Positions 4,822-53,216 of a stretch of DNA of 64,000 bases are shown here, piece by piece (the first letter of the stretch is position 1; every line of letters starts with the position of its first letter). Made by a program: the position numbers and the translations under genes. This DNA comes from a bacterium. Its GTDB lineage: Bacteria; RUG730; JBDRED01; JBHPKP01. The stretch spans positions 8,483 to 72,482 of the forward strand of contig JBHPKP010000001.1 in assembly GCA_042566505.1 (NCBI GenBank), given 5' to 3'. Under the pieces are notes generated by a model. That model was not told where the DNA came from. It ran no database searches and worked only from the letters and a program-made list of their open reading frames with translations.

Positions 4822-4961
4822 AATATTATTATTTAATTATTCTATATCCAATTTTATCTGAGAATACGTTAGAACTTTGCTTATCGTGTATGCTAGCAAT
4901 ATTTTCATCTTAAGTTTCTTCTAATATCTTTAAATCTGAACTGGTATAAAAGAACAAAAGC

Positions 4962-4998
4962 AAGCTAAAACATTGCCAAAAATAGTTATTTTCGGCAA
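4962..4998 (-). terminator. putative intrinsic terminator downstream of the csp gene
   Basis: Imperfect inverted repeat TTGCCAAAAATA/TATTTTCGGCAA directly downstream of the csp stop on the minus strand, followed by a short T-rich run. Confidence 0.4.
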
Positions 4999-5018
4999 TG
5001 TAATGCTTATTAACTTTG

Positions 5019-5213
5019 TTAGCTTATTTTTTGTACATTTACTGCTTTTTTCCCCCTATCTCCTTCTGCTGAATCGAACTCAACTTTATCCCCTTCCTCT
5101 AACACTCCTGATACGATATCATTTTTGTGAACAAAAAGATCACCGCTGTTGTCTTCTGGCGTTATAAAGCCAAAGTTTTTACTTTGATTAAAAAATTTTA
5201 CTGTACCTTTCAT
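5019..5213 (-). CDS. cold-shock protein (CspA family)
   Basis: 64 aa, MKGTVKFFNQSKNFGFITPEDNSGDLFVH..., with the canonical RNP1/RNP2 cold-shock-domain motifs. Confidence 0.9.
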   Translation of the reverse strand: MKGTVKFFNQSKNFGFITPEDNSGDLFVHKNDIVSGVLEEGDKVEFDSAEGDRGKKAVNVQKIS

Positions 5214-5322
5214 AATAACACTCTCCTTTTTAGCTAAATTTATTTTACAATTTTCAATATTTCATACAACACACACAATAACAAAATTATCATTTTCTTT
5301 AAAAGAAGACACACAATAAAAA

Positions 5323-5394
5323 AGCCGGCGAAGGGAGTTGAACCCCCGACCTGCTCATTACGAATGAGATGCTCTACCACTGAGCTACGCCGGC
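5323..5394 (-). tRNA. tRNA-Thr (anticodon CGT)
   Basis: Reverse complement folds as a cloverleaf. Perfect 7-bp acceptor stem GCCGGCG/CGCCGGC, D-arm GCTC/GAGC, anticodon loop TTCGTAA, T-loop TTCAACT. CCA not encoded. Confidence 0.75.
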
Positions 5395-5489
5395 ATTATC
5401 AACCCTCACTCCTAATCCCCTCTTCCAATTCCCGACAAGCTGCTTCGAGGATGGCAGGTAGAGGGGAACACATTAAGGATAAATTATTA

Positions 5490-7850
5490 TCATTTAAATA
5501 GTTCTTCAAGCATACGTTTGCCATTTTCTAGTACTTTATCCGAAATCAAGTATTGATATTTTGGCTCTTTTATTGTACCTGTAATTTTAAAACTTGGGCT
5601 TACGCGTCCCTTTTTGTCTTTATTAAGATCTGCAAGTGTACCACCTATGACACCCTCGGGTAGTTTCACAGTTGTTAAAAGATCCAACTTTGAGTTTACA
5701 ATATTCACCGCACCTTTTGAATATACATCCATCAGATCGCTATTCATTGTAAAATCTTGTGTTTTAAGCAGGCTATTTTTTATCTCGAATGTAGATGAAA
5801 TATTATTATAATTCACCTCATTGAATGCCGGCATTTTTAGAATATTTCCAATATTAGCTAAAACTTCAACATCCTTTAGCGTTACATTTTTTGCCTTAAT
5901 ATCTCCACGACTATATAACTTTCCCCACATCATTCCTCGTCCACGAATTTTTAGATTAGCATCTAATGTTCCACTTGTAATGTTTTTTGAATACATTCCA
6001 TACATACTCAAAAACTTATAAACATTCAGACTTTTCATATTAACATTTACTAGATAATCAACCTCATCAAGTCTAACTAATGCAACTGTGACCTTTCCTT
6101 TAATTTTGCCTTCACTTGTCCTGATCTGGATAGGATTGAGCACAACAATACTATTCTTAAATTGAATATTTCCTTCAAGCGAATCAAACAAAATATTTCT
6201 AAATGTAATATTTTTCAGATTAAAGTCCCATGAAAAATCAGCATTTCTCAAAAATTCAGGCAATAACAGCTGTTTTTTCTCGTCTACCTTTTTAGATTTT
6301 ATTGGTTTAACTTGTACTTTTTCTTCCTCGTCTGATTGAATATTGGAACGCTCCAAAACATCATCGAAATCCACACCGGTTAGATTTAGCTTTGCACTGC
6401 CAATTGGGTTTTTAAAATCATCAACACTCAAATTAAATGCAAATGGTTCGTTATTAATGAGCGCTTTAATGTAGTCAATTTTTAAGCTGTCACTTTTATA
6501 GAATATCTTGGTCTTCAAATCATCGATAATTGTATTATTGATTCTGAAATGAGTATTATTAAGAAAAACAGTTCCTTCGAACTTATTAAGATTTACGGAA
6601 TTTATATAGAAAAGCTCAAGATTCATTGAACCCTTTAAATCGTATAATTTTAATATATCTGAAAAATTTGGACACAAGGCAAGATCAACATTATCAGATG
6701 ATAGATTTAAACGCACCTTGGGTTTTTTCGCTGTATAATCAAGTGTCCCTTCGGATGAAAATTTTACTTCATGCAAGTTAGTTTTAATCTTTTTGATATT
6801 TATAACTTTCATTTGATTAACAGCAATATCAAAATCCAACTCAGAACTTGTTAAATTATTTTTATTAAAATATTTTTTATAATTAATCACTGTGTCTGTT
6901 AGATTAATATTCCCATTCAAATTCAACACTTCATTAAACATTCCTTTAACTTTAAAGTCTAAAATTGCACTTCCGCTAATATCCAGCTCTTTTGAAAGTT
7001 TAATTTGCCTCTCGAAAAGTTTTAAAAAGTCATTAATATTAAATTTTTCAGATGTTACTTTTAAATCCACCTTAAACATGTCTTCTGTAAAATCAAGTTC
7101 GCCTTTTGATTCTACTTGCACATTGTTAAGATTTATGAGTAATTGTCGTAGATTAACAATCTTATTTGCAATATCAATTTTTGCATCAAGTTTCAATGAT
7201 CCATTTAGCGCAGTTCTAAAAAATCTATTGTATTTTTGAGTTCCATCTGATTTGAGTTCGATATTAAACGGTTTTAGAATTGAAAAATTTGAAGTTTTTA
7301 GGGCAAAACCCGTTATCCTAATAGGTTTATCTTTTGTTGTTTTATCGTCGTACGAAATCTCCGCGCTGCGTATTTCTATATCCGAAGCAAGGATTGGAAT
7401 AGCTGCAAGATATTTGATGTCCCATTTATCCTCGCGTTTTTGGGCGCTGAATCCTTCTTTTCCCAAACTGTAAAAATTATATTTTGAATCTGCACTTTTT
7501 ATAATACGAATTTTTGGTGATTCTATAATAATATTGCTAGGTTTGGCTTTTTTCTTTATGAGTCCAAGAAGCTGGAACTTGACCTGAACATTTGCAGCCT
7601 CCATAAATAAGTCTTGCCCTGAATCTTCAAAAACCTTTACGCTTTTCAACTTAATCCCAATCGAATCCAAACTAACTGACCCAATTTCTACTTTTCTTGC
7701 AAACATTTCACTAGCTTTTGTTTCTATGATCTGCTTAATTTTTTCAGCAGGGAAAAATATTTTTAACGCTAATAAGCCCGCGCCAATTAAAACACCCAAA
7801 ATTAGTAATGATATAAAAATAACTTTCAGTTTCTTTTTCATTCTGTACAC
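5490..7850 (-). CDS. AsmA-family outer-membrane biogenesis protein
   Basis: 786 aa. Single N-terminal membrane anchor followed by a long repetitive beta-rich region, the architecture of AsmA/TamB-like proteins. Confidence 0.65.
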   Translation of the reverse strand: MYRMKKKLKVIFISLLILGVLIGAGLLALKIFFPAEKIKQIIETKASEMFARKVEIGSVSLDSIGIKLKSVKVFEDSGQDLFMEAANVQVKFQLLGLIKKKAKPSNIIIESPKIRIIKSADSKYNFYSLGKEGFSAQKREDKWDIKYLAAIPILASDIEIRSAEISYDDKTTKDKPIRITGFALKTSNFSILKPFNIELKSDGTQKYNRFFRTALNGSLKLDAKIDIANKIVNLRQLLINLNNVQVESKGELDFTEDMFKVDLKVTSEKFNINDFLKLFERQIKLSKELDISGSAILDFKVKGMFNEVLNLNGNINLTDTVINYKKYFNKNNLTSSELDFDIAVNQMKVINIKKIKTNLHEVKFSSEGTLDYTAKKPKVRLNLSSDNVDLALCPNFSDILKLYDLKGSMNLELFYINSVNLNKFEGTVFLNNTHFRINNTIIDDLKTKIFYKSDSLKIDYIKALINNEPFAFNLSVDDFKNPIGSAKLNLTGVDFDDVLERSNIQSDEEEKVQVKPIKSKKVDEKKQLLLPEFLRNADFSWDFNLKNITFRNILFDSLEGNIQFKNSIVVLNPIQIRTSEGKIKGKVTVALVRLDEVDYLVNVNMKSLNVYKFLSMYGMYSKNITSGTLDANLKIRGRGMMWGKLYSRGDIKAKNVTLKDVEVLANIGNILKMPAFNEVNYNNISSTFEIKNSLLKTQDFTMNSDLMDVYSKGAVNIVNSKLDLLTTVKLPEGVIGGTLADLNKDKKGRVSPSFKITGTIKEPKYQYLISDKVLENGKRMLEELFK

Positions 7851-12087: not shown

Positions 12088-14028
12088 TTATATGCTTCTA
12101 TAAGTATCCTTTAACACTTCAACAATAAACGGATCGAATTGTAACCCTTTGCAGCGATGCATTTCCTCAATTGCGTCTTCTCTGCTAAGTGTATTTTTAT
12201 AAGTTCTATATGAAGTCATTGCATCAAAACTATCCGCCACTTGTAAAATCCTTGCAAGCAAATCAACCTTTTCCTCTTTCAATCCATCGGGATAACCTGT
12301 GCCGTCCCATTTTTCATGATGATGCCTAACAATTTTCTTTATTTCAGACAAAAAATCCATAGGGGTAATAATACTTTCACCCCGAACAGGATGTGTCTTT
12401 ATTATATTATATTCTTCATCAGATAGTTTTTCTTCTTTGTTTAATATTTTTTCATCAATAGAAATTTTTCCAATATCATGCAAAAGTGCTGCATAATTTA
12501 ATAGCTCTATATCTTTTTTGGAACAACCAACTTTTTCTGCAATCGCAATACTGATAAGCCTTACACGTTCAACATGTCCACGTGTATTAATATCCTTGAA
12601 TTCAAGAGCCTTTGATAAAGATTCAATTGTACCCAAAATATTGTGCTTAAGTTCTGTATATGAAGAAGCATTAATAAAAGTTACGCCAATTTCCAAACGT
12701 AACAAGTTTAATGCAGTTAGTTCCTGTATTGTAAATGTTTCGCACTCTTTCTTTTCACCTAAAGTCATAAAACCTATCAGTTTTTCATTTACTAAAATAG
12801 GCACACACACTTCTGCTTCCATGATTTTTAAATAATGCTCTGCTGCATGATAACCTTTTCTTGTTTCATCAAAATTTTTCTTAATATTATGTATCCAAAT
12901 CCTATTCCCCGATTTCAACCATTGAACTAGAAAGTGCTTTGAACTAAATTCCATATCTTTGCAATTGCTGCAATCTCCATGCAGACCTTTTAGTACATAT
13001 TTTTTTTTGTCTGCATCAAAAAGGAATAAAGTTACTTTTTTAACCTTAAATATCTCAGAAATATTTTTTAAAACATTTTCAACTAATTGTCCAATATCCA
13101 ACATTGAAACTATTTGCTCTTTAAATCTTCTTACATCAGCTTCATATTTATTGTCCGTCAGATACATTTTGTTAATTATTTTTTGAACATATTTCAAATA
13201 TGGAAAATAGCAAAAAGAAATGAATGCGATTGATAAAAACCTAAAAAATATTAAGTTTTTTAGATTTAATTTTACCGCAAAAAACTCAAAAACAAACATC
13301 AAAAATAAATACGTAACCGTAAAGGAGCTGCCCATAATAACATGGACAGTACTTCTTTTTACAACACTCTGAACACCAAACAAAGTATATCGAAAAACCG
13401 CATATACCGTCATTCCTAAATAAAATAACACTCCAATAAAACTATAAAAAATCAACTTGAAGCAACCATAGAATGGCAATAAAACTAAAGTAAGCAGCAA
13501 TATTATCTGCAGACCAATATGCCCAATAAATATGCATCTGGCTTGCAGCCTTAAAATACTATTAAACAGATATTGCGTTATTCCGGTCATATATAAGGTG
13601 TATAAAATCGAGTATAAGAAAAACCCTAAAAAAATAATCGAATTTAAACTAAAAACAATCGTCAACTCCGGATCATAAGTTATTCCTATCATATTTCTAT
13701 CAAAAAGGATGATCATAAATATAATAGCTCCTATTGTTAACCAATGAAAAATTTCTAATAAACTTAATTTTTTTTGATATGTAAATACTTTTATAAACAT
13801 GATATTTGCAACTAAAACAAAAACCCAGCTTGCAAATAGTATTTTGAGCAACAAAGCAGATTGAAACAAGCTGGCAACACTTAATAAGATCAACCAAAAA
13901 CTAGTAACAAATATAAAAATTAAAAAAAGTTTTCTAATATAAAGCTCCACTTTTAACTTGCTAAACAATAGTATCCCCAGTATCAAGTTTACAGATATTG
14001 ACAGTGTAATTAATATAATTTCTAACAT
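12088..14028 (-). CDS. 7TM receptor-GAF-HD-GYP phosphodiesterase (c-di-GMP)
   Basis: About 7 predicted TM helices N-terminally, a central GAF-like region, and a C-terminal HD-GYP domain (LHDIGK ... HHEKWDGTGYP). Confidence 0.8.
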   Translation of the reverse strand: MLEIILITLSISVNLILGILLFSKLKVELYIRKLFLIFIFVTSFWLILLSVASLFQSALLLKILFASWVFVLVANIMFIKVFTYQKKLSLLEIFHWLTIGAIIFMIILFDRNMIGITYDPELTIVFSLNSIIFLGFFLYSILYTLYMTGITQYLFNSILRLQARCIFIGHIGLQIILLLTLVLLPFYGCFKLIFYSFIGVLFYLGMTVYAVFRYTLFGVQSVVKRSTVHVIMGSSFTVTYLFLMFVFEFFAVKLNLKNLIFFRFLSIAFISFCYFPYLKYVQKIINKMYLTDNKYEADVRRFKEQIVSMLDIGQLVENVLKNISEIFKVKKVTLFLFDADKKKYVLKGLHGDCSNCKDMEFSSKHFLVQWLKSGNRIWIHNIKKNFDETRKGYHAAEHYLKIMEAEVCVPILVNEKLIGFMTLGEKKECETFTIQELTALNLLRLEIGVTFINASSYTELKHNILGTIESLSKALEFKDINTRGHVERVRLISIAIAEKVGCSKKDIELLNYAALLHDIGKISIDEKILNKEEKLSDEEYNIIKTHPVRGESIITPMDFLSEIKKIVRHHHEKWDGTGYPDGLKEEKVDLLARILQVADSFDAMTSYRTYKNTLSREDAIEEMHRCKGLQFDPFIVEVLKDTYRSI

Positions 14029-15977
14029 ATGACTATTTTCCTTAAAGCTTTTGACGCATAGTAAGCAATTTGGGGATCAAACCACAAACTTGAATATTTC
14101 CCAATCTCATACAATGCCTTATCAAAAGATTGGGCACCTCGATATGGGCGTGAAGATGTCATGGCATCAAATGCATCTGCAATTGCTATTATCCTCGAAA
14201 AAAACGGTATTGATTCCTTTGAAAGGTTGTCAGGGTAACCTGTCCCATCCCATTTCTCATGATGGTGTCTCACAATCTCTTTTACACTTGTTAAAAATTT
14301 TATTGGATGAATAATATTTTCACCCAAAACCGGATGTTCTTTGATTTGATCAAATTCTTTTTTATTCAGTTTGGACTCTTTGTGTAAAACCTTTGAATCA
14401 ACTGCAATCTTGCCAATATCATGTAAAAGACCTCCAAATTCCAAAAGATCCAACTCATGACGCTCCAGTCCAATTTCCTTACCAATTTCAACTGCATACC
14501 CAACTACTCGTTCAGAATGTCCACATGTATATAGGTCTTTTGCCTCTATTGCATTTGTGAGCGCTTTAACAGTTCCCAGATAATTATTTTTAAGTTCATT
14601 ATATGAAATAGCATTTGAAATACTTAATGCAGTTTCATTTGCAATAACCTGCAATAGTTTTTTTTCATTTTGACTATATGTCTGCTCATCATTTTTTTCA
14701 CTTAATACAAAAATACCTACTAATTTCTGGCTATAAAAAACCGGAACAAAAAGCTCGAGTTTATGACTTTCAATAAAATCTAATAACTTTGAATCATTTA
14801 TCCCATATTCGAATATATTACCTTTAGTTAATACCCCTTTTGATTCTTTCATAAGCTTTATGACTCTACTTTTTTCATCCAAAATAATAGGAGACTCCAA
14901 CTCATCTGAACTGGTTTGAGAGGCATCCAAATAGTAAGTTTTTTGTTTATTGTCGTACAAAAAAAGTGCAACAAAACTCATATACCATTTTGAGTCCATT
15001 GCATCCAAAATAATATCAACTAAATTTTGCAAATTTAATACAGTTAGTATTTTATTTGAAAATTTGTTTGCAACATTAAAGTTATCTATATCTGCATTAA
15101 ATATTTTATTCTCAAAAAATAATTCAATTTTACTTTTCAAAGGTAAAAATATAATCGAAATAAGTACAGACATTACAAAACGTGCAAAAATTGAATTATA
15201 CCCGGCAAGGTTTTGAAGTACATGTTCGAAAACATAAATTCCAGAGAAAAATATTGAAGTAATAATTACCACAATAGATCCATAAACAGTGCTTTTTTTA
15301 AGAATATATCTAAAATTAAATAAATTTAGATTATATGCCCAATAGTACAAAAAGATAATATTATTTATCCCGACAAAATAAAAAAGTACTTTATAATTAT
15401 TTGTATTAACATACGGCATAAAAATAAAACACAAATAATACAACCCACCTAAATAAACACAACTAAACAGAACACTCATACTTATATCTGTTTTCTCTAC
15501 ATACCAAAAATATATTTCATACAAAAAGAAAAGAGACACAAGAAAAACAAATTCCGAATAAACAATAAAAAGATTTGTATAGTTTATTGAAACAATACCC
15601 GAATCAAATGAAAGAAAATTTTTATCAAACACAATAAATGTTGTAAATATCATGCTTACTAAAAAAATTACTGATTTTATTTTGGTATTGATATCCAGAC
15701 GTTTAGAAATTTTTGAAGCAAAAAGATAAAAACTAAAAATTAGACAGGAATACACATACAAAAAAGAATAAAATAAAAATGATTTATTATAAACATGGAT
15801 AGAAATTATATTGACAAGCCATATCGCTGCAAAAAAACCAATCAATAAAAGTGGGAAAATATATTTTGATCTGTTTTTTTCAACAGCTTGGCTCGGAGAG
15901 AATAGTTTTGATAAAAGGTTTTTAAAAAGCCCTAGAAACACTATTTTAAATTTTCTTAAAAATGTACCTTTTTTCAT
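14022..15977 (-). CDS. 7TM receptor-GAF-HD-GYP phosphodiesterase (c-di-GMP), tandem paralog
   Basis: Same architecture as the downstream neighbour. The HD-GYP core (LHDIGKIAVD ... HHEKWDGTGYP) is near-identical, and the two ORFs overlap by 7 nt. Confidence 0.8.
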   Translation of the reverse strand: MKKGTFLRKFKIVFLGLFKNLLSKLFSPSQAVEKNRSKYIFPLLLIGFFAAIWLVNIISIHVYNKSFLFYSFLYVYSCLIFSFYLFASKISKRLDINTKIKSVIFLVSMIFTTFIVFDKNFLSFDSGIVSINYTNLFIVYSEFVFLVSLFFLYEIYFWYVEKTDISMSVLFSCVYLGGLYYLCFIFMPYVNTNNYKVLFYFVGINNIIFLYYWAYNLNLFNFRYILKKSTVYGSIVVIITSIFFSGIYVFEHVLQNLAGYNSIFARFVMSVLISIIFLPLKSKIELFFENKIFNADIDNFNVANKFSNKILTVLNLQNLVDIILDAMDSKWYMSFVALFLYDNKQKTYYLDASQTSSDELESPIILDEKSRVIKLMKESKGVLTKGNIFEYGINDSKLLDFIESHKLELFVPVFYSQKLVGIFVLSEKNDEQTYSQNEKKLLQVIANETALSISNAISYNELKNNYLGTVKALTNAIEAKDLYTCGHSERVVGYAVEIGKEIGLERHELDLLEFGGLLHDIGKIAVDSKVLHKESKLNKKEFDQIKEHPVLGENIIHPIKFLTSVKEIVRHHHEKWDGTGYPDNLSKESIPFFSRIIAIADAFDAMTSSRPYRGAQSFDKALYEIGKYSSLWFDPQIAYYASKALRKIVIC

Positions 15978-18689: not shown

Positions 18690-19583
18690 ATGCTTTATAA
18701 AATATTTTATAACCCCATAGTAAGCGGTATGCGCAGCAAAAATAATGCACTCACTAAACTTACAAAGCAACTAACCAAACACAAAATCCAATTTGAAGTC
18801 GTTGCCACAACAATTGACAATACAGATGAAAAGGAACTAATTAAAAATATCAAAAAGTTTAAAGCAATAATCGTTCTCGGTGGTGATGGAACATTAAACA
18901 AAACTCTAACATATCTCATAAAAAACAAAGTATCTATCCCCATAGGTTTATTGCCTTGCGGCACTGCAAATGTTTTTGCAATCGAAAAGAAAATCCCATT
19001 CAAAATAAATGCAGCTCTTAAAGTTATATTAAATCATAATGTAAAACTACTAGATATAGGACGAGCAGCAAACAGACGCAAGATTTATTATTTTTTATTA
19101 ATGGCAGGAATTGGTTTTGACGCAAAAGCTGTGTTTGATGTAAACCCAAAAATCAAAAAATATACAAAAAAACTAGCATACATTTTGGCAGGTTTAAAGA
19201 ATTTCATAAAAAGACCTCAAAAAATTGAGGTAGAATTGCCCCTTTTAAAAAAGAAATTCCCTACAACATATGTAGTCATAACTAACAGCAGTTATTATGC
19301 AGGTAAATTTAAAATTGCACCGGATGCGGATATGGCAGACGGTTTATTTGATATGTGCCTATTTAAAGTTAAATCTAATATCGAATACTTAAAATCCATT
19401 CTACATATCGTAAAAAAAACCCATATTACAAAAAACCATATGATGCATATACAAACCGATAAATTCATGATCCGTTCAAAGGATAAACATCCTGTTTACT
19501 TCCAACTTGATGGAGAGGCCATAGGAACACTGCCCCTAAGAATAGAAATTCTTCACAAACACTTGCCCTTTTTGCTGCCATAA
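18690..19583 (+). CDS. diacylglycerol kinase catalytic-domain lipid kinase (YegS/BmrU-like)
   Basis: AIIVLGGDGTLNKTL motif of DAGK_cat. Size 297 aa. Confidence 0.8.
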   Translation: MLYKIFYNPIVSGMRSKNNALTKLTKQLTKHKIQFEVVATTIDNTDEKELIKNIKKFKAIIVLGGDGTLNKTLTYLIKNKVSIPIGLLPCGTANVFAIEKKIPFKINAALKVILNHNVKLLDIGRAANRRKIYYFLLMAGIGFDAKAVFDVNPKIKKYTKKLAYILAGLKNFIKRPQKIEVELPLLKKKFPTTYVVITNSSYYAGKFKIAPDADMADGLFDMCLFKVKSNIEYLKSILHIVKKTHITKNHMMHIQTDKFMIRSKDKHPVYFQLDGEAIGTLPLRIEILHKHLPFLLP

Positions 19584-23238: not shown

Positions 23239-23353
23239 TGCCTTTATATTGACAACAAAAAACAAATGGAATAAGATACTGATAAATAGAATTTTTATAC
23301 TAATAAATGAGGGGATAAAAGTTTTAAAAAATATACTAAAAGGAGCTTAGCGA

Positions 23354-25051
23354 ATGTCCCTCAAGCAAACACTCGATAGAAGAGAAAAAAAAATATTTAA
23401 TAAAAAAAACAATCCACCTTTAAAAGGTGACACTATTGCAAAAACAATTAAAAGAAGAATAGTGTCTAGATATTATGTAAATAATTTTTCTGCACAACTT
23501 TCGTCAACACAAAACGAAACTAAAACAACTGGCACGATTATAACTGTCAGTGAAGATGGTATGACAGGTCAATTTAACCATCCTTTAAACCTATTAGAAA
23601 GAATTGATATTAAATTAATAACTCCAAAAAAAGAAGAATACCTTTGTAAAGGAAGAATAATGTGGGCAAATTCAATTGATAATAATCAATTTCAATATGG
23701 TATTGGTTTTTTAGACACTAACTCCAATAAAGAAGTGGTCCTATTCCTAAAAAATTTTATAAACAAGGAACAAAAAAATCTTCCTCAAAACGAAAGAAGG
23801 ATTAACAACAGAAGAACAAAAACAAACAACAAATTGAATGACAACAAAAGGAACACTGAGAGAAGGATAAACAAAAGTATATTTAAGAAATGTATCGCTA
23901 CTTCTAAAGTTGATTACCTTCTAAAAAAAGTCAAAGGTTTTTTTAGAGAAACTTCTACTGCAGCTGCATCAAAGATAGTCACACACGGAAGAGAAATGAT
24001 AGGCTTTAGCTCTTGTAGTTATCTTGGACTAAATAATGACACTAGAGTCAAAAATCTAATGATAAAATCTATTAAACAATACGGAACAACTACTTGCAGC
24101 TCTCCACTAGCCAGTGGCACTATGGATATTCATAATAAATTGACAAAAAAAATTGCTGAGTTTCATAAAACAGAAGACAGCATTTTATATTACATGGGAT
24201 ATTTAGCAAATCAGGGATGCTTAGGTTCTATAGTAAGCAGCCATGATTATATTCTTACTGATGAGAAAAGTCATGCCAGCATAATCGAAGGTTGTTCATT
24301 AGCCAATGGAACCTTCTTGACATATAAACATAACAATATGGATGACTTAAAAAAGCAATTAAAAAAACTTCCAGATACTGGGAAACTTATAGTAACTGAT
24401 GGAGTTTTTAGTATGGATGGAAATGTTGCTAAACTAGACGATATTTATGATTTAGCACAACAATATGATGCCGGAATTATGGTAGACGATGCTCATGGTA
24501 TAGGCGTCTTGGGAAACAATGGAGGCGGTACAGCTGAACACTTTGGACTTGAAGGTAAAATTGATATCATAATGGGTACATTTAGTAAATCAATGGCTCT
24601 AATAGGAGGATATATTACAGGAAAGAAAAGTCTTATTGATTACTTAAAGTGGACAAGTAGAGCTTTTATTTTTAATTTAAGCTTGCCACCCTATATCATC
24701 GAACCTGTTTCAAAAATTATTGATATAATTCAAAAAGAACCAAAACTAAGAGAGTGTTTATGGAATAACATTCATTATATGAAGACTGGACTGCGAGATT
24801 TAGGATTTGATATTGGAAGTCCAGATGCAGCAATAATACCAATTTGGATCAAAAATAACGAAAAAACATATAAACTAGTTGAAGAACTTGAAAAACAAGG
24901 AATCTTTGCAGATACTGCAATTTATCCCATAGTAAAAAAAAAGGAAACCATGATTCGTCTTGTTATTACAGCGGAACACAGTATAGATGATTTAAAAAAA
25001 ACAATTTCTATTTTTAAAACTGTTGGCAAAAAACATAAGTTGATTCCTTAG
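23354..25051 (+). CDS. PilZ-domain / alpha-oxoamine synthase fusion (serine palmitoyltransferase/BioF/Kbl-like PLP acyltransferase)
   Basis: N-terminal ~150 aa carry PilZ-like motifs RIVSR (RxxxR) and VSEDGMTG (DxSxxG-like), then a Lys/Asn/Arg-rich linker. The C-terminal ~370 aa are a class-II aminotransferase AOS-family domain with the PLP-lysine block GTFSKS. Preceded by GGAG RBS. Confidence 0.7.
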   Translation: MSLKQTLDRREKKIFNKKNNPPLKGDTIAKTIKRRIVSRYYVNNFSAQLSSTQNETKTTGTIITVSEDGMTGQFNHPLNLLERIDIKLITPKKEEYLCKGRIMWANSIDNNQFQYGIGFLDTNSNKEVVLFLKNFINKEQKNLPQNERRINNRRTKTNNKLNDNKRNTERRINKSIFKKCIATSKVDYLLKKVKGFFRETSTAAASKIVTHGREMIGFSSCSYLGLNNDTRVKNLMIKSIKQYGTTTCSSPLASGTMDIHNKLTKKIAEFHKTEDSILYYMGYLANQGCLGSIVSSHDYILTDEKSHASIIEGCSLANGTFLTYKHNNMDDLKKQLKKLPDTGKLIVTDGVFSMDGNVAKLDDIYDLAQQYDAGIMVDDAHGIGVLGNNGGGTAEHFGLEGKIDIIMGTFSKSMALIGGYITGKKSLIDYLKWTSRAFIFNLSLPPYIIEPVSKIIDIIQKEPKLRECLWNNIHYMKTGLRDLGFDIGSPDAAIIPIWIKNNEKTYKLVEELEKQGIFADTAIYPIVKKKETMIRLVITAEHSIDDLKKTISIFKTVGKKHKLIP

Positions 25052-25069
25052 TAAATGGAGAAATAATAA

Positions 25070-27799
25070 ATGTATTTAATAATTCTATTCCCAATAGCAT
25101 TTGTAACTTTTTTTATTTTTGTTGGAATATTTAAAATACGTAAAAATTATTTTTTAAAAAATTATTTTATTTCTTTCAATGTTATAACCTTGATTTGGCT
25201 ATTAACTAACTTTTTTTGTTTGTATACAGGTGTTGGCTTTTTATGGTTTAAACTAGCCTACGCAACAGGTGCATTAGTACTCTGCACTACCTTTTTACTT
25301 ATTTTAAGTTTCTCAAAACAAGCAAAATTATCAAATTTCACATTATTAAAAATATATTTAATTGGAGGTTCCTTTTTCACATTATCTCTTTTTGACAACA
25401 TTTTTTTTAAAGGAAAATCTGAAACTTATACAGATTTATTTCTTGTATATTTTATATCACTCATAGGATTATTATTGTTTTCTTTATATAAAATATATAT
25501 CGTATCTAAAAATTTTCAAGGAATTAAAAAGTTACAAGCACGTTATATTTTCTTAGGATTATTCACATTTATTTTTGTCAGCTCACTTATGAGCTTTTGG
25601 TCACCTCTTCTTTTTGATTTTCCAGAACTAGGAAGATATGACTTTTTTGGACAACTTTTTTTCATAGGTTTTACAGGATATGCAATCATCCAGTATAAAC
25701 TTTTGGATATTGACCTTGTCTGGCGTTACACTTCCAGCTATTTACTGTACTTTTTTCTTGGTTCATCACTCTTTGTTTCTATTCTTTTTAGTGTCCGAGA
25801 TTGGTTTTATTCAATCTTAGTAGTCTGTGTCTCATTTGTAGCCTTCTTACCCTTTCTTCATAAATTGATATTGAAATTTGCAAACAACATATTATTAAAA
25901 AAATACAATAGGGTTTGGGATGACTTAAACAAACAAGGATATGAAGATGAGGTTTTTGGCACAACGAAAAAATTAATTAGTAAAAGATTAAACAACATCC
26001 TAAGGCAGCTAAAATTAGCAAATGGCAGCTTCTTTATATTTAAAGAACAAAGTGATAACTATATTTTATTTGAACATCAGGGTAACCAAGGTTCAAAAAA
26101 TATGCGGATTAACTCAAGCAATAAAATTATTGAATATTTAAAGTTTACTAAACAACCTCTAATGAAAGATTTAATTGTTAATGATGATAAAACAGATATT
26201 TTAAGTACAATGGACGAACTAAATGCTGAAATAGCATTCCCTGTTTTCTTAAGTTTTAAACTAATCGGAATACTCTTCCTTGGTCCAAAAATCACAAATA
26301 ATATTTTCAACCCAACTGATATTAACGCTATTGTAGGCATCATCAAACGAACCGAACCAAAGTTAAAGCAAACACTTTACCTAGAACAGCAAGAACAATT
26401 AATGGAAGCATCCAAGAAAATGAGCGAAATAAAAGAACTCAATAAACTTGCAAAATACATTGTTCACACTTTCATGCGTTCTTTAAATTCTGTGAATGCT
26501 TCTATTTATATTTACAATGAAAAAGAAAGTAACTATACAAAAGCTTATGAAAAAGGACTCCTGCAAAACAATAAAGACATTGCATTCAAACATGATGATC
26601 ACTTTATCAAATATCTAACACAACGAGGATCTCCATTACTTTATAATGATATACATAGATGGGCAGAAGAAACAAGATCAGAAGAACTTAAAAATGTTGC
26701 AAAAAAATCTGCCGATATACACGCACAAATAACTATTCCAATGATTTATGAAAAACTTTTAGGGTTTGTTGTATTGGGTGAAAAACGAGTTTTCAAAACA
26801 TATTCGTACGAAGAAATAAACACCTGCAATATACTTGCTTCAGCTGCATCTACAAATATCCACAACATCATCTTGGCAGAGGAAGCTATGCGTGACCCAT
26901 TAACAAATTTGTACAATAGAAAACACTTTAGCGCACTTGTAAAAGAAAGCATTCTCAAATCAATTAAAATCCAAAAACCTCTTTCGTTTATCATTATTGA
27001 CCTTGACCACTTTAAACAATACAATGATGATTTTGGACATCAATATGGTGATACAATTCTTGAAAAATTTTCAAACTATATTGTGCGAAGCATCAGACCC
27101 GCTGATATTGCAGTAAGATATGGTGGTGAAGAATTTGTGCTTATCCTACCTAACACAAACAGTGAAGGTGCGCAAGTTTTCTGCAACCGTCTGCAAGCAA
27201 GCTTAAAAGACGAACCTGTAATAAGTGACATAACAATGAGTATTGGAATTGGAAGCTTCATACCTGAAAAACGTGAAGAAGACGAAATTTATCCTCTTGA
27301 TATTGACAGAATGAAGAATCAACTCATAAAAGTAGCAGATGCAGCTGTTTATAAAGCAAAGAAAAATGGAAGAGATCAAATATACGTCGGAGAAGAACTT
27401 TTGGAACGAAGTATATTAACAAAGAAGAATGAATATAAAATAAAAATTGCAATAATAATTCCTGACGATATAACTGCTCGCAAAACCAGCCACACACTCC
27501 AATTATTAGGATGTGATACACATGTATTTAATACGGGTCGTGATGGTTTAAGATTTATGGATCAATCTAGTCCGGACATAGTTTTGATGTCCCTTGACTT
27601 GCCAGATGTAGATGGAGTTGAAATCATCAGACAAATGGCAATAAAATATATCACTACAATAAAAGCTATTCTAGCCACAACCAACAAAGCTCACCTACGC
27701 GAAGAAATGCTTGAACTTGGAGTACAAGGATTCTTCCTCGAGCCTCTCAAACCACAAGATATTGAAGCATGGATTAAGTATATTAAAGAGATGATTTAA
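25070..27799 (+). CDS. 7TM receptor-GAF-GGDEF diguanylate cyclase with C-terminal receiver domain
   Basis: N-terminal polytopic membrane domain, central GAF-like region, GGDEF domain with intact active site RYGGEEF and I-site RPAD, C-terminal REC domain (DD pair, LMSLDLPD, T, K). Starts 19 bp after the PilZ-AOS gene. Confidence 0.8.
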   Translation: MYLIILFPIAFVTFFIFVGIFKIRKNYFLKNYFISFNVITLIWLLTNFFCLYTGVGFLWFKLAYATGALVLCTTFLLILSFSKQAKLSNFTLLKIYLIGGSFFTLSLFDNIFFKGKSETYTDLFLVYFISLIGLLLFSLYKIYIVSKNFQGIKKLQARYIFLGLFTFIFVSSLMSFWSPLLFDFPELGRYDFFGQLFFIGFTGYAIIQYKLLDIDLVWRYTSSYLLYFFLGSSLFVSILFSVRDWFYSILVVCVSFVAFLPFLHKLILKFANNILLKKYNRVWDDLNKQGYEDEVFGTTKKLISKRLNNILRQLKLANGSFFIFKEQSDNYILFEHQGNQGSKNMRINSSNKIIEYLKFTKQPLMKDLIVNDDKTDILSTMDELNAEIAFPVFLSFKLIGILFLGPKITNNIFNPTDINAIVGIIKRTEPKLKQTLYLEQQEQLMEASKKMSEIKELNKLAKYIVHTFMRSLNSVNASIYIYNEKESNYTKAYEKGLLQNNKDIAFKHDDHFIKYLTQRGSPLLYNDIHRWAEETRSEELKNVAKKSADIHAQITIPMIYEKLLGFVVLGEKRVFKTYSYEEINTCNILASAASTNIHNIILAEEAMRDPLTNLYNRKHFSALVKESILKSIKIQKPLSFIIIDLDHFKQYNDDFGHQYGDTILEKFSNYIVRSIRPADIAVRYGGEEFVLILPNTNSEGAQVFCNRLQASLKDEPVISDITMSIGIGSFIPEKREEDEIYPLDIDRMKNQLIKVADAAVYKAKKNGRDQIYVGEELLERSILTKKNEYKIKIAIIIPDDITARKTSHTLQLLGCDTHVFNTGRDGLRFMDQSSPDIVLMSLDLPDVDGVEIIRQMAIKYITTIKAILATTNKAHLREEMLELGVQGFFLEPLKPQDIEAWIKYIKEMI

Positions 27800-27894: not shown

Positions 27895-29970
27895 TTATCC
27901 GACTTTTATGAGTACCATATCAGTGCCGAATCGTTTGGATAGTTTGTTTTTTAGAAGTATATTTTCTTGGGAGGTTAGTTCAAAATCATTCCGAAGTACT
28001 TTTTTGCTGGCTGACCGAGCCAAACTTATGATGTGCGAATCTTGCAAAAGATCGCCTATTCGTAATTCCGGTAGGCCGTGCTGCCTGCCTCCGATAAATT
28101 CACCAGGACCGCGAAGCCTTAAATCCTCATCTGCAATCATGAATCCATCATTGTGATTCACAAGCGCTTTCAATCTTCTGACTGCATCCGGAATTTTCAC
28201 ATTGCTTACGAGGAAACACTTTGATTCATGAACCCCTCTCCCCACACGCCCTCTAAGCTGATGGAGCGTGGCAAGTCCAAAACGTTCTGCATGCTCAATA
28301 ATCATTACTGTTGCATTTGGAACATCAATGCCTACCTCAATAACAGTTGTTGCAACTAATATTTTAATTTTGCCGGATTTAAAATCACTCATTACTTGAT
28401 TTTTTTCTATAGTAGGAAGCTTTCCATGCAAAAGTCCAATTTCCACACCCGGAAAAACATTCTGCCTCAAATATTCACACATAGCAGTAGCGGCCCTCAG
28501 CTCCAACTTATTCTCATCAACTGCCGGATACACAACATATCCCTGCCTGCCTTTTGAAACCTCTTCTTGTAAGGCAGCAAATGCTTGCTTCTGAGATGCT
28601 ATTTTAGTTGCAATTTTTTTTCTACCCTTTGGGAGTTCCCGTATGGTGGATACATCCAAATCACCATAAACAGTTAATGCAAGTGTACGTGGAATTGGTG
28701 TTGCAGTCATGACCAAAACATCGGGCACAAATCCCTTACGTCTCAAGTTCAGCCTCTGATACACTCCAAATCTATGCTGTTCATCAATAATAATAAGTGC
28801 AAGATTTTTAAATTTCACGTCATCACTTATAAGTGCGTGTGTTCCAACAATAATATCTATCTCACCATTTTCAAGACGAGCCAAAATATCAGTTTTTTCT
28901 TTTTTCTTCATACTTCCAACCAAAAATCCAACTTTTACATCCAAGTCTTTGGTGTATTCTTTTATCGAAAGATAATGCTGCTCTGCCAAAACTTCTGTTG
29001 GAGCCATCAAAGCGCCCTGCAATCCATTCTCAATGCCAAGTAAAAGCGCAGAGAGCGCAACAACTGTTTTTCCGGACCCCACATCACCTTGAAGCAATCT
29101 ATTCATTGGAGCTGCGCATGCCATATCATCAAAAATTTCGTTTATTACGTGCTTTTGGCAGTTGGTAAATTCAAAAGCTAATGATTTTTTGAACGGTGTT
29201 AAAAGATTTTTTTTAATTTTATATGTGTGCGATTTTTCTTCTTTTTTCGCAAGCTGTCTTTGTCTAAGCAGCGCACATTCCAAAAGAAAAAACTCGTCGA
29301 ATACGAGCCGTTTGTAAGCCTGATTCTTTAAATCAATTGAGTCTGGGAAATGTATGTTTCGGATTGCATGTTTTAGAGGCAAAAAATTATGCTCTTGGAT
29401 TATTTGGTCCGGCAGATGGTCAATCACTTCACTCAGAGCATTTTGCTCCAACACCTGTTTCACGAGCGAACGAACAAACTTATTATCTACATTTTCTGTA
29501 AGTGAGTATACAGGAATCACTCGCCCTGTATTCGAAAGATTTTCAGCCGAATCATTTACCTCATACTCAATAACCTTTATGCCTTCCCAATCAACTGTTC
29601 CTGTTAAAAATAGTTTTATCCCGCATGCAAGTTGCTTCTTTAAATAGTGAAATACATCGTACTTATAACTTCTACGTCTGAACCAATATGCATTCAACAC
29701 ACCTGTTCCGTCATCAATCGCTGCTTTGAATATCACCATACCCGAACGAGTAGATATAACCTCATTGTGCACGATCTCACCAAAAACTGTTGCAGTCTCC
29801 GCAACTGAAATATCATTAATCTTTTGAATCGTGCTGCGATCAATCCATGTTCGTGGAAAATAGTAGAGCAAGTCCTTTACTGACAAAATGCCTAATTTCT
29901 CAAGCAACTTGGCACGTTTTGGACCAACACCCTTTAAATATTGTACATGTGTATCGAGTTTGTTCTGCAT
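27895..29970 (-). CDS. recG: ATP-dependent DNA helicase RecG
   Basis: Probable start at internal Met (MQNKLDTHVQYLKGVGPKRAKLLEKLGI). Wedge domain and DEQH helicase motifs (GDVGSGKT, DEQHRFGV) present. Confidence 0.9.
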   Translation of the reverse strand: MQNKLDTHVQYLKGVGPKRAKLLEKLGILSVKDLLYYFPRTWIDRSTIQKINDISVAETATVFGEIVHNEVISTRSGMVIFKAAIDDGTGVLNAYWFRRRSYKYDVFHYLKKQLACGIKLFLTGTVDWEGIKVIEYEVNDSAENLSNTGRVIPVYSLTENVDNKFVRSLVKQVLEQNALSEVIDHLPDQIIQEHNFLPLKHAIRNIHFPDSIDLKNQAYKRLVFDEFFLLECALLRQRQLAKKEEKSHTYKIKKNLLTPFKKSLAFEFTNCQKHVINEIFDDMACAAPMNRLLQGDVGSGKTVVALSALLLGIENGLQGALMAPTEVLAEQHYLSIKEYTKDLDVKVGFLVGSMKKKEKTDILARLENGEIDIIVGTHALISDDVKFKNLALIIIDEQHRFGVYQRLNLRRKGFVPDVLVMTATPIPRTLALTVYGDLDVSTIRELPKGRKKIATKIASQKQAFAALQEEVSKGRQGYVVYPAVDENKLELRAATAMCEYLRQNVFPGVEIGLLHGKLPTIEKNQVMSDFKSGKIKILVATTVIEVGIDVPNATVMIIEHAERFGLATLHQLRGRVGRGVHESKCFLVSNVKIPDAVRRLKALVNHNDGFMIADEDLRLRGPGEFIGGRQHGLPELRIGDLLQDSHIISLARSASKKVLRNDFELTSQENILLKNKLSKRFGTDMVLIKVG

Positions 29971-30201
29971 AATGGTATATTTATAGCAAAAAAATGTACG
30001 GTTGTAAAAAATGAGGAGAATAACATCATTTTTAAAGGTACTAAATTCGACCAGTTCACAACTAATTGATAGACAACTATAGCACATATGTGCTTTTAAG
30101 GAAGTCTGCTTCTTGTCTTGAACTGTGATTCGTGATTCGTATGATTTTTATGATGAACATGATTTTAGCCATAAGACACAAACATTACTTTCCCTACACC
30201 T

Positions 30202-51593: not shown

Positions 51594-53216
51594 CTACTGA
51601 CGAGAGGATGCTATTGTATTTTTCCCTAGAATTCTCTCAATTCTTACTATCAATTCTTCAGGATAAAAAGGTTTGGTAATATATTCAACTGCACCTTTTT
51701 TAAACCCTTGTACTATATCACCTTCCTGATTCTTGGCAGAAAGTATCAAAACAGGGATATTCATTGTAGATTCTGTTTTTTTTATATTTTTCAAAACCTG
51801 CATGCCGTCTACTTTTGGCATCATCACATCTAGTATTATTAAAGCCGGAGGTGTACTATTAACAACTTCCAAACCCGATTCTCCATCGAAACTGCACATT
51901 ACTTCATAACCTTTTTCTTCAAGTTTAGCTTTGACCAAATTGCAAATATCTTCATCATCATCAATAATAGTAATCATATTTGATTTAGTTCTTTTTTTAG
52001 ATTTTTTATCTTCATACATATTGACATCTGCAATCTCAAAAACACGTTCTTCACTATTAACTTCTTTACTAAACGTTGAGCTGCCAACACTTATTGAAAA
52101 GTTTATTTTTTTGCCAGTCTTATCGATAATTGATAATTCATTTTTATTAATACTTTTTAATTTTTTCTCAACAATTGTCGCATTTTCCTTGTCACATTCC
52201 GAGAGAATTATTACAAATTCATCACCACCAAACCTTGCAATAATATCACTTTGCCTAAGCTCGCTGTTCAAAATTTGCGCAATTTTCTGGATTGCAAGAT
52301 CACCTGCAAAATGTCCAAATGTATCATTTATAACCTTCAAGTTGTCCATATCAACAATAAGGAGTGAATAAACTTTTTCATATCTTTTTGCTATATCATT
52401 GAAAAGTTTTATTTGTTTCTTAAAATAATCTTTATTGTGCAAACCCGTAAGTCCATCTGTCATTGAGATACATTCATACATTTTTTTCTTCTTAAGAATG
52501 GCTTTCACACGCGCCAAAAGCTCTTCTTCCTCGAACGGTTTGGTCATGTAATCGTCAGCACCTAATTCAAGCGCTGCTACTTTATCCTTTACAGCGTCCT
52601 TTGCAGTCAAAAATAATACAGGGATACCTTGAGTCATCTCATCTTGATTCAATTTCGCCTTTAGCTCTATTCCATCCAAACCTGGCATATCAATATCCAA
52701 AATAGCAATATCAGGCACAATTTGCTTGATCATTTCAAATGCGTTCAATCCATCAGAAGCTTCATATACATTGTACCCATCATCTCTTAACAACTGTTCT
52801 AAAACCAATAAAATATCAGGTTCATCATCTGCTATAAGAATCCTACTTTTAACAGGATTTAATTCGCTGCTATTTGAATTCACGAATTTCTCTTTTGTAC
52901 TTTCTGATTTATTATGGTCTATAGATTGCTGTACTTTTACAATGTACTCTATTAATTTTTCATTTAATTTTTCAATTTTTTGTATATCCTTGTCTTGAGC
53001 AGCTTGTTCCATTTCTTGACCGATTCTTGTAATTTCACCTAAACCATACATTCCACCGGAACCACGCATTTTGTGTGCAAGATGCTTAATATTTTCTGTA
53101 TCACCGACTTTTAAATTTTCATTAATTGTATTGCAGTCCTCGTTTCTATGTTTAATATAGGCTGCAATAAATTTTTCAAGTTTTGGATTGATATGTATTG
53201 TTCCTGACTGACTCAT
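51594..53216 (-). CDS. Hpt-REC-GGDEF-REC diguanylate cyclase / phosphorelay protein
   Basis: N-terminal Hpt (HKMRGSGGMYG), first receiver (ILIADDEPD...ILDIDMPGLDG), GGDEF with I-site RQSD and active site RFGGDEF, second receiver (IIDDDEDI...ILDVMMPKVDG...TKPF). Confidence 0.8.
   Translation of the reverse strand: MSQSGTIHINPKLEKFIAAYIKHRNEDCNTINENLKVGDTENIKHLAHKMRGSGGMYGLGEITRIGQEMEQAAQDKDIQKIEKLNEKLIEYIVKVQQSIDHNKSESTKEKFVNSNSSELNPVKSRILIADDEPDILLVLEQLLRDDGYNVYEASDGLNAFEMIKQIVPDIAILDIDMPGLDGIELKAKLNQDEMTQGIPVLFLTAKDAVKDKVAALELGADDYMTKPFEEEELLARVKAILKKKKMYECISMTDGLTGLHNKDYFKKQIKLFNDIAKRYEKVYSLLIVDMDNLKVINDTFGHFAGDLAIQKIAQILNSELRQSDIIARFGGDEFVIILSECDKENATIVEKKLKSINKNELSIIDKTGKKINFSISVGSSTFSKEVNSEERVFEIADVNMYEDKKSKKRTKSNMITIIDDDEDICNLVKAKLEEKGYEVMCSFDGESGLEVVNSTPPALIILDVMMPKVDGMQVLKNIKKTESTMNIPVLILSAKNQEGDIVQGFKKGAVEYITKPFYPEELIVRIERILGKNTIASSRQ

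Follow-up and report, generated by a model that had tools for sequence, protein, structure and literature searches.

Does the second messenger cyclic di-GMP (c-di-GMP) act directly on enzymes that condense acyl groups? Its known direct, PilZ-mediated enzyme targets are mainly exopolysaccharide synthases and motility proteins. The question is raised by two adjacent genes in a 64,000-nucleotide stretch of bacterial DNA (GenBank assembly GCA_042566505.1, contig JBHPKP010000001.1, positions 8,483 to 72,482 of the forward strand), referred to here as the window, whose own numbering is used below. The first open reading frame (ORF1) encodes a PilZ domain joined through an arginine-rich tether to an alpha-oxoamine synthase (AOS), an enzyme dependent on pyridoxal phosphate (PLP), and the second (ORF2) encodes a sensor protein with multiple transmembrane (TM) segments followed by GAF, GGDEF and receiver-like regions. 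An initial annotation, made from the sequence alone, had described both genes, on the same strand, and the motifs that it quoted were all found. The best reading that we can offer is that the pair forms a c-di-GMP-gated AOS synthase-receptor cassette with a co-inherited membrane sensor, a proposal whose chances we consider about even. The features on which the argument is built are the following.

23249..23277, + strand, sigma-70-like promoter candidate TTGACA-17-TAAGAT 5' of ORF1 (10/12 consensus match)
23340..23345, + strand, ribosome-binding site AAGGAG of ORF1, 8 nt before the ATG, read from the sequence
23354..25051, + strand, ORF1, fusion of PilZ, Arg-rich tether and AOS (565 aa)
23453..23470, + strand, PilZ motif 1, RRIVSR (RRxxxR), residues 34-39, read directly
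23474..23773, + strand, PilZ beta-barrel and C-terminal helix, residues 41-140 (Pfam, AlphaFold2, Foldseek)
23543..23560, + strand, PilZ motif 2, TVSEDG, residues 64-69, inside the barrel
23774..23875, + strand, flexible basic tether, residues 141-174 (pLDDT <50 in the full-length AlphaFold2 model)
23792..23815, + strand, ERRINNRR, second RRxxxR-type motif, in the tether (sequence)
23858..23875, + strand, ERRINK, in the tether (sequence)
23876..25048, + strand, AOS domain, residues 175-565 (Aminotran_1_2, 1e-49)
24587..24589, + strand, PLP-lysine K412 in the GTFSKS block, conserved in the family
25057..25060, + strand, ribosome-binding site GGAG of ORF2, inside the intergenic gap
25070..27799, + strand, ORF2, multi-TM, GAF, GGDEF and receiver-like protein (909 aa)
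25070..25879, + strand, membrane sensor module, residues 1-270, ~7-9 hydrophobic segments by hydropathy
25967..26860, + strand, cytoplasmic GAF-type region, residues ~300-597, with GAF_2 at 457-597
26885..27379, + strand, GGDEF domain, residues 606-770 (PF00990, 9e-37)
27095..27106, + strand, I-site RPAD, residues 676-679 (WspR alignment)
27122..27136, + strand, active site GGEEF, residues 685-689 (WspR alignment)
27458..27775, + strand, receiver-like domain, residues 797-902 (Response_reg, PF00072, 45 bits)

The N-terminal region of ORF1 can soundly be regarded as a genuine canonical PilZ domain. The Pfam profile PF07238 matched residues 44-125 with 26.7 bits in the full protein and 29.9 bits when residues 1-160 were searched alone (gathering cut-off 22.5 bits), and the PilZ domains of its relatives reach 60 bits on the same profile. 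For residues 1-195, AlphaFold2 (AF2), run on an alignment of the N-termini of 15 fusions, gave strands at 46-51, 57-65, 69-74, 83-89, 95-108 and 112-119, followed by a helix (123-139), with a predicted local confidence (pLDDT) >90 over residues 41-140. A six-strand barrel followed by a long C-terminal helix is the definition of the canonical PilZ domain (10.1101/814665). In a Foldseek comparison with the PDB the top 39 matches were all PilZ domains (BcsA with E = 1.8e-5, YcgR, MrkH, Alg44, MapZ), and a profile of the N-terminal module retrieved 10,035 proteins (E <= 1e-3) out of 1.84 billion representatives, those checked being PilZ proteins. The profile search and the structure prediction by which the initial annotation proposed to examine its PilZ assignment thus both bear it out. 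The motifs for binding c-di-GMP could be followed over 27 fusion proteins. RRxxxR is kept in 26 of them, with R34, R35 and R39 of ORF1 nearly invariant, and 21 have the canonical [D/N]hSxxG form of motif 2, which is unrecognisable in the family members P0035, P0124, P0190 and P0258. All the PilZ motifs that had been quoted for ORF1 are indeed there (RRIVSR, TVSEDG, and YGIGF at residues 115-119), but motif 2, which retains the hydrophobic residue, the Ser and the Gly, opens with Thr instead of the canonical Asp or Asn. Given the conservation of both motifs (26/27 and 21/27), binding of c-di-GMP is likely for the fusion family as a whole, and plausible but less certain for ORF1 itself.

Behind the PilZ helix comes the tether, the basic linker of the initial annotation, which does contain the two arginine-rich motifs listed above. 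Despite its predicted disorder, R148, R149, R170 and R171 are nearly invariant in the fusion family. In ~19/27 of the fusions a [DE]RRxxxRR sequence, a second copy of the RRxxxR pattern, follows directly after the PilZ helix, and the same tail is found in PilZ fusions to other acyl enzymes.

The C-terminal part of ORF1 is a complete AOS enzyme, as had been claimed. Aminotran_1_2 (PF00155) matches residues 214-551, and the domain starts at SIFKKC (residues 175-180), which is also the N-terminus of unfused relatives. H307, D378/H381 (DDAH), K412 and R535 are invariant over 18 family sequences and line up with the catalytic residues of the serine palmitoyltransferase (SPT) of Sphingobacterium multivorum. 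This SPT was the best match in the PDB (326 bits, followed by KBL with 246, BioF with ~173 and CqsA with ~111). We rejected an SPT identity based on this match since the NCBIfam scores were flat across subfamilies and under every cut-off: 402 bits (cut-off 640) for SPT-CFB (NF047600), the best-scoring model, 388 (535) for the Kbl-related TIGR01825, 373 (460) for Kbl (NF005394) and 361 (426) for BioF (TIGR00858). The family member P0005 is near-equal on Kbl and SPT-CFB (424 and 422 bits), and its relative P0017, which has no PilZ domain, gave equally flat scores. As a reference, a true SPT (from Muribaculum, P0119) scored 664 bits on SPT-CFB with the next-best model at ~407, and Bacillus-type enzymes scored 515-630 bits on the Kbl and Kbl-related models (545-630 on TIGR01825). 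In the fusions, the loop that precedes the C-terminal Arg has the sequence YP[AI]V[KR]K[KR]E, where SPT-CFB types have SPAVP and KBL has FPVVPKG. Among the matches listed in a full-alignment contig scan, AOS enzymes of many phyla were 35-42% identical to ORF1, and there was no fusion among those listed. We conclude that the ORF1 enzyme represents a distinct AOS subfamily, about as far from SPT as from Kbl and BioF. As the three kinds of model score about equally, all below their cut-offs, the enzyme is not assignable to any of them, and the "sphingolipid-like or biotin-like" synthesis initially raised as a possibility is not an assignment that these scores allow.

The next-closest unfused clade is represented by a Thermodesulfovibrio-type AOS (P0043), which scored 589 bits on SPT-CFB, just short of the cut-off. 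Its gene overlaps an upstream gene of the NAD-dependent epimerase/3-beta-HSD family (7078..9221 of L096), a pair that could be a reductase-AOS unit of the Tdh/Kbl or SPT/reductase type. P0043 was considered as a guide to function and rejected because the sensor is lacking and the neighbour is an epimerase-family reductase, which places it in another clade.

In ORF2, in addition to its Pfam match, the cyclase domain scored 148 bits on TIGR00254, and RPAD and GGEEF align on RSSD and GGEEF of WspR, in agreement with the active site and I-site having been reported as intact. The membrane module was harder to place. HisKA_7TM (PF16927; cut-off 28.6 bits) gave no match in ORF2 at E <= 5, and a protein search with ORF2 residues 1-600 returned only itself and one distant HisKA_7TM kinase. 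The profile does match the sensor orthologue of locus L093 (22.2 bits, over the whole profile) and a distant homologue, P0271 (34.8 bits), and the ORF2 module is probably a divergent HisKA_7TM relative. GAF_2 scored 25.4 bits on ORF2, below its cut-off of 28.6, and of the 6 aligned sensor partners 4 have a GAF match. About 130 extra residues (~300-440) are shared only with the cyclase of locus L006. For the C-terminal receiver also described in the initial annotation, Response_reg gave 45 bits (cut-off 30.2), and the WspR alignment puts Ser841 at the position of the phospho-accepting Asp, with Asp843 at +2 (both lie in residues 839-849, LMSLDLPDVDG, encoded at 27584..27616). Because of this replacement it is possibly not a standard phosphorylatable receiver and may be a pseudo-receiver; it is not kept in the remaining GGDEF-type partners.

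The clearest indication of how the two genes belong together came from their relatives. The PilZ-AOS fusion is rare, with ~14 clusters at 50% identity among the 1.84 billion representatives (Pfam-verified), and the homologues are 38-50% identical to ORF1 over the full length. All come from metagenomes or metagenome-assembled genomes (MAGs), with source labels such as "bacterium", Endomicrobiales, "Clostridia" and subsurface metagenome, and are annotated just as generic aminotransferase, BioF or Kbl. ORF1 itself is identical to an NCBI MAG protein labelled just [quoted passage not shown], and the label of ORF2 is "diguanylate cyclase [bacterium]". In all nine fusion loci with downstream sequence, and next to one PilZ-less relative, a sensor gene is found downstream of the AOS, so that the pair, whose conservation the initial annotation had left to be checked, is indeed kept. 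The sensor follows directly 3' of the fusion in the window, L006, the P0003 locus, L009, L093, L098/L003 and L008. In L001 and L094, genes for a short-chain dehydrogenase/reductase (SDR) and a methyltransferase come in between. The partners are a 917-aa TM-GAF-GGDEF protein (L006), an 815-aa GAF-GGDEF protein (P0003 locus), a 718-aa TM-GAF-HisKA-HATPase kinase (L009), a 699-aa histidine kinase (L093), a kinase of at least 708 aa (L098) and, behind the methyltransferase and SDR, whose order differs, a ~720-aa TM-GAF kinase (L001/L094); in L003 and L008 the partner is a partial ORF that aligns to the same TM module. The output is thus HisKA/HATPase in 5 fusion loci and GGDEF in 3, including the window.

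What all these AOS-linked partners share is a homologous N-terminal membrane module, with 25 invariant columns and BLASTP values from 1e-9 to 1e-58. The modules are closer across genomes than to paralogues within the window: that of ORF2 is 40% identical to the one of L001 (E = 1e-32) and 29% identical to that of an HD-GYP protein of the window (E = 3e-10). P0017, the nearest PilZ-less AOS, is nested in the fusion clade by similarity, and the gene behind it encodes the same sensor, ending in a kinase. Pairwise similarities of the AOS and of the sensor TM module are correlated with r = 0.91 over 9 pairs, which shows that AOS and sensor are stably co-inherited but alone is no proof of co-evolution. 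Judged from these sequences, the conserved link is that of the AOS with the input module of the sensor and not that of PilZ with a cyclase, the output domain having changed between histidine kinase and GGDEF. Locally made c-di-GMP, on which the initial annotation had based its whole unit, is therefore not the conserved principle, as the orthologous sensor mostly ends in a kinase, with GGDEF in only three loci, and P0017 keeps the sensor without any PilZ.

Some of these loci contain additional genes. The SDR (adh_short, 285 aa) and the UbiE/Methyltransf_11-type SAM methyltransferase (210-217 aa) of L001 (9713..11238) and L094 (2787..4306) suggest that these organisms reduce the amino-ketone to an amino-alcohol and methylate it; a tblastn search of the window with both proteins found no homologues. 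The lineage of P0005/P0275 has a gene for a free-standing PilZ protein of 149 aa between mutS and mutL (L097, 7554..8003; L098, 2218..2667), directly upstream of PilZ-AOS. In L093 the fusion-kinase pair is closely followed by genes (4901..5698) for a REC-TIR protein (CAP12-PCTIR_TIR) and a Cas4-like nuclease, probably an unrelated defence island.

In the window itself ORF1 and ORF2 probably form a bicistronic, two-gene cassette. A gap of 18 nt, free of terminator-like sites, separates the stop of ORF1 from the start of ORF2, each ORF has a ribosome-binding site, and the promoter candidate lies inside the 115-nt gap between pgi and ORF1, so that the co-transcription initially suggested looks right. 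These operon signals are consensus matches only, and sites like the promoter candidate show no enrichment in the region. The flanking genes (pgi, recG, groEL, dxs, hisD, PEPCK, DUF1015, YhdP-like) are unrelated housekeeping genes, for which reason the cassette can be taken as self-contained. The first ~40 residues (MCYSCLSISCELVEF...) of the recG ORF (27895..30087, - strand) resemble an over-extended frame, and its start is probably the internal Met of ...YTIMQNKLDT....

c-di-GMP is clearly in use in the source organism, since the window includes two tandem TM-GAF-HD-GYP genes and one Hpt-REC-REC-GGDEF gene. The former (12088..14028 and 14022..15977, both - strand) are overlapping paralogues of 646 and 651 aa with several TM segments, GAF and HD-GYP (HD_5). 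The first of them carries the ORF2-type membrane module (29% identity, as given above), and by this homology a related input module drives c-di-GMP synthesis and presumably degradation in one genome. The Hpt-REC-REC-GGDEF protein adjoins a HAMP-HisKA-HATPase kinase (51594..53216 and 53627..55159, both - strand), and the two make up a further two-component unit of the window that produces c-di-GMP.

From these elements the following mechanism can be proposed. The AOS of ORF1 would join an amino acid to an acyl-thioester in a condensation that yields an alpha-amino-ketone. c-di-GMP would bind the PilZ domain through RRxxxR and xhSxxG, perhaps with a contribution of the RRxxxRR of the tether, and binding might order the tether, which runs into the N-terminal helix of the AOS, and so alter the activity of the enzyme. 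The 7TM-GAF sensor would read the amphiphilic product of the AOS or the membrane change that results from it, which would explain why it is the sensor input and not its output that stays linked to the AOS. In the source genome the sensor output would be c-di-GMP synthesis, limited by its own I-site, closing a feedback loop that runs from product to sensor, c-di-GMP, PilZ and back to the synthase. In the kinase variants the same loop could go through a phosphorelay, with PilZ reading the general cellular pool of c-di-GMP. A local c-di-GMP loop in the source genome is thus plausible as one variant of a more general arrangement.

Several points weigh against this proposal. The full-length AF2 model (pTM 0.65) gives no confident orientation of PilZ relative to the AOS and no confident interface. 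A docked interface between the two, which we had considered, was dropped for this reason; the allosteric control asserted in the initial annotation is not supported as stated, with the linker disordered and no confident docking, and the route from PilZ to the AOS in our scheme is likewise conjectural. ORF1 is the sole case among the 27 fusions with Thr at the Asp/Asn position of motif 2. Most of the partners are kinases, and no response regulator or link to c-di-GMP was identified for them. We infer product sensing from the conserved linkage alone, we know of no ligand for any HisKA_7TM-like module, and vertical co-inheritance by itself could yield the correlation between AOS and sensor. The enzyme scores far lower on the CqsA/LqsA model (NF005526; 209 bits, cut-off 428) than on those of SPT, Kbl and BioF. 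The SDRs of L094 and L001 match generic SDR families better than any specific reductase, and the family is of exclusively metagenomic origin, with a poorly placed taxonomy.

The alternative that deserves most attention is one of membrane-lipid homeostasis, in which the AOS would catalyse the committed reaction in making long-chain bases, sphingolipid-like compounds or aminolipids, the 7TM-GAF module would sense a property of the envelope and not the product, and c-di-GMP would toggle lipid remodelling, for example in switching between surface-attached and free-living states. It is a possibility that we hold with some reserve. Among solved structures the Bacteroidota-type SPT comes closest (326 bits vs 246 for KBL) and SPT-CFB tops the NCBIfam models, but ORF1 has 402 bits on SPT-CFB for a cut-off of 640 while a true SPT has 664 (~407 on its next-best model), P0005 does not separate Kbl from SPT, and the substrate loop of the fusions differs from the SPAVPP of SPT-CFB types. 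The SDRs score 177 (L094) and 146 bits (L001) on the model of KdsR, the 3-ketodihydrosphingosine reductase, far under its cut-off of 400 and more weakly than on generic SDR models. A YegS/BmrU-family lipid kinase gene (DAGK_cat; TIGR00147 147 bits, above the cut-off) lies 3.8 kb upstream of the cassette (18690..19583, + strand), and eukaryotic sphingosine and ceramide kinases also have the DAGK_cat catalytic domain; in other proteins this PilZ module is joined to KAS I/II and FabH; and the organism is diderm, going by its YhdP-like gene. On the other side, genes for ceramide synthase, acyl carrier protein (ACP) or acyl-ACP synthetase were absent from the ~40 kb of annotated sequence surrounding the cassette and from the related loci, and lipid homeostasis would leave the constant adjacency of a single sensor lineage unexplained. 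That same adjacency makes it very improbable that ORF1 is a housekeeping Kbl or BioF enzyme with a chance extra domain, situated by chance beside a signalling gene. Databases do label the relatives as 8-amino-7-oxononanoate synthase or 2-amino-3-ketobutyrate CoA ligase, and the Kbl and BioF models give 361-424 bits. However, no equivalog cut-off was reached, tdh or bioA/bioD/bioB were not adjacent in any examined locus, and the sensor is next to the AOS in 9/9 fusion loci and is co-inherited with it.

Two further explanations concern the PilZ domain. ORF2 might only feed the PilZ domain of ORF1, as a private c-di-GMP circuit whose sensor reads an external cue unrelated to the product. This would suit the three loci in which the fusion is paired with a GGDEF protein (window, L006, P0003 locus), the intact GGEEF and I-site and the operon-like arrangement, but the orthologous sensor carries a histidine kinase in 5 fusion loci and is retained by the PilZ-less P0017. 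Since a minimum of one other cyclase and two HD-GYP phosphodiesterases are encoded in the window, nothing indicates a private pool, and we regard such a circuit as unlikely. Somewhat less probable still is that the ORF1 domain has lost c-di-GMP binding and serves as a docking or tethering module, towards the sensor or the membrane, like some degenerate PilZ proteins. The Thr in motif 2 of the window copy and the four family members without a recognisable motif 2 point that way, and the Arg-rich tether could serve to hold anionic lipid or an acidic partner. Against it, RRxxxR, the Ser and the Gly are intact in ORF1, 21 of 27 family members are canonical in motif 2, the neighbouring gene is predicted to make c-di-GMP, and PilZ domains within fusion proteins are described as keeping their c-di-GMP binding (10.1101/814665). 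We retain the c-di-GMP-gated synthase-receptor cassette as the preferred reading.

The components of this cassette have separate precedents. BcsA, with a C-terminal PilZ, and Alg44, with an N-terminal one, are also canonical PilZ domains covalently joined to a biosynthetic protein; in fold the PilZ of ORF1 is nearest to that of BcsA (see the Foldseek comparison), and it is placed N-terminally as in Alg44. In contrast to both, its partner is a soluble PLP-dependent Claisen-type condensing enzyme and not a membrane glycosyltransferase or secretion component, and the connection is a disordered Arg-rich tether of ~35 residues with a second RRxxxRR, from which no gating-loop mechanism can be deduced. 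The S. multivorum SPT (PDB 3A2B/8GUH) aligns with ORF1 residue for residue at GTFSKS, HASII and DDAH, but its substrate loop is SPAVPAEE where ORF1 has YPIVKKKE, and known SPTs have no PilZ; ceramide-pathway neighbours are absent at the cassette. The GGDEF domain of ORF2 aligns with those of WspR and PleD, over GGEEF as well as over the RxxD I-site that lies five residues upstream of it, whereas its receiver-like domain, with Ser at the phospho-Asp, is C-terminal and not N-terminal to GGDEF and its input is a membrane 7TM module plus GAF.

As cassettes, the nearest functional precedent would be CqsA/CqsS of Vibrio and LqsA/LqsS of Legionella. CqsA and LqsA are PLP enzymes of the AOS superfamily, and genes for autoinducer synthases usually lie next to those of the cognate sensors and co-evolve with them as cassettes (PMC3376566). 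Here too, an AOS-superfamily PLP enzyme is found beside a multi-pass sensor with which it is co-inherited, and most ORF2 relatives share the histidine kinase output of CqsS/LqsS-type systems. Membership in this class fails the profile search, however, as ORF1 has less than the score required of a CqsA/LqsA enzyme. ORF1 also carries a PilZ, and ORF2, which has a HisKA_7TM-like domain and GAF, would make c-di-GMP; its likeness to CqsS is one of gene arrangement. PilZ-regulated enzymes, AOS enzymes and synthase-sensor cassettes are thus each known already, and it is their combination that is new. In the literature we found no description of a PilZ-AOS fusion or of c-di-GMP control of an AOS, in line with the novelty first claimed for the fusion, and no report linking c-di-GMP to sphingolipid or to ketoacyl synthase. 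The fusions covered in a review of PilZ architectures are to BcsA, Alg44 and signalling domains, with none to PLP or acyl-condensing enzymes (10.1101/814665).

The PilZ module of ORF1 is not restricted to AOS enzymes. As an N-terminal domain, often with the [DE]RRxxxRR tail, it is fused elsewhere to KAS I/II, to FabH/KAS III, to a LuxD-like acyltransferase plus methyltransferase, to a methyltransferase alone and to a radical-SAM protein (P0137, P0155, P0168 (~570 aa), P0145 (486 aa), P0152 (836 aa), P0170 (702 aa), P0130 (388 aa) and P0247 (545 aa)). The presence of the same PilZ on several acyl and lipid enzymes suggests a portable c-di-GMP module for acyl-condensing enzymes. A bolder interpretation, tentative and clearly less probable than the cassette as such, would combine the two observations: an unrecognised synthase-receptor class, with this cassette as its first example, in which an amphiphilic amino-ketone or amino-alcohol made by the AOS is read by its own 7TM-GAF sensor and PilZ closes the loop through c-di-GMP, and a portable PilZ cassette made of RRxxxR, the PilZ barrel, the helix and the [DE]RRxxxRR tail, carried by AOS, KAS I/II, FabH and LuxD-like acyltransferase plus methyltransferase enzymes.

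A PLP-dependent acyl-condensing enzyme wired to PilZ would extend direct c-di-GMP control to the biosynthesis of lipids or signal molecules, and the effect may be wider given that the same PilZ module is found on fatty-acid-type condensing enzymes elsewhere. Since the system comprises only two genes, heterologous reconstitution is feasible. The constant pairing with one sensor lineage provides a testable handle both on what HisKA_7TM-type sensors detect and on the product of this orphan AOS subfamily.

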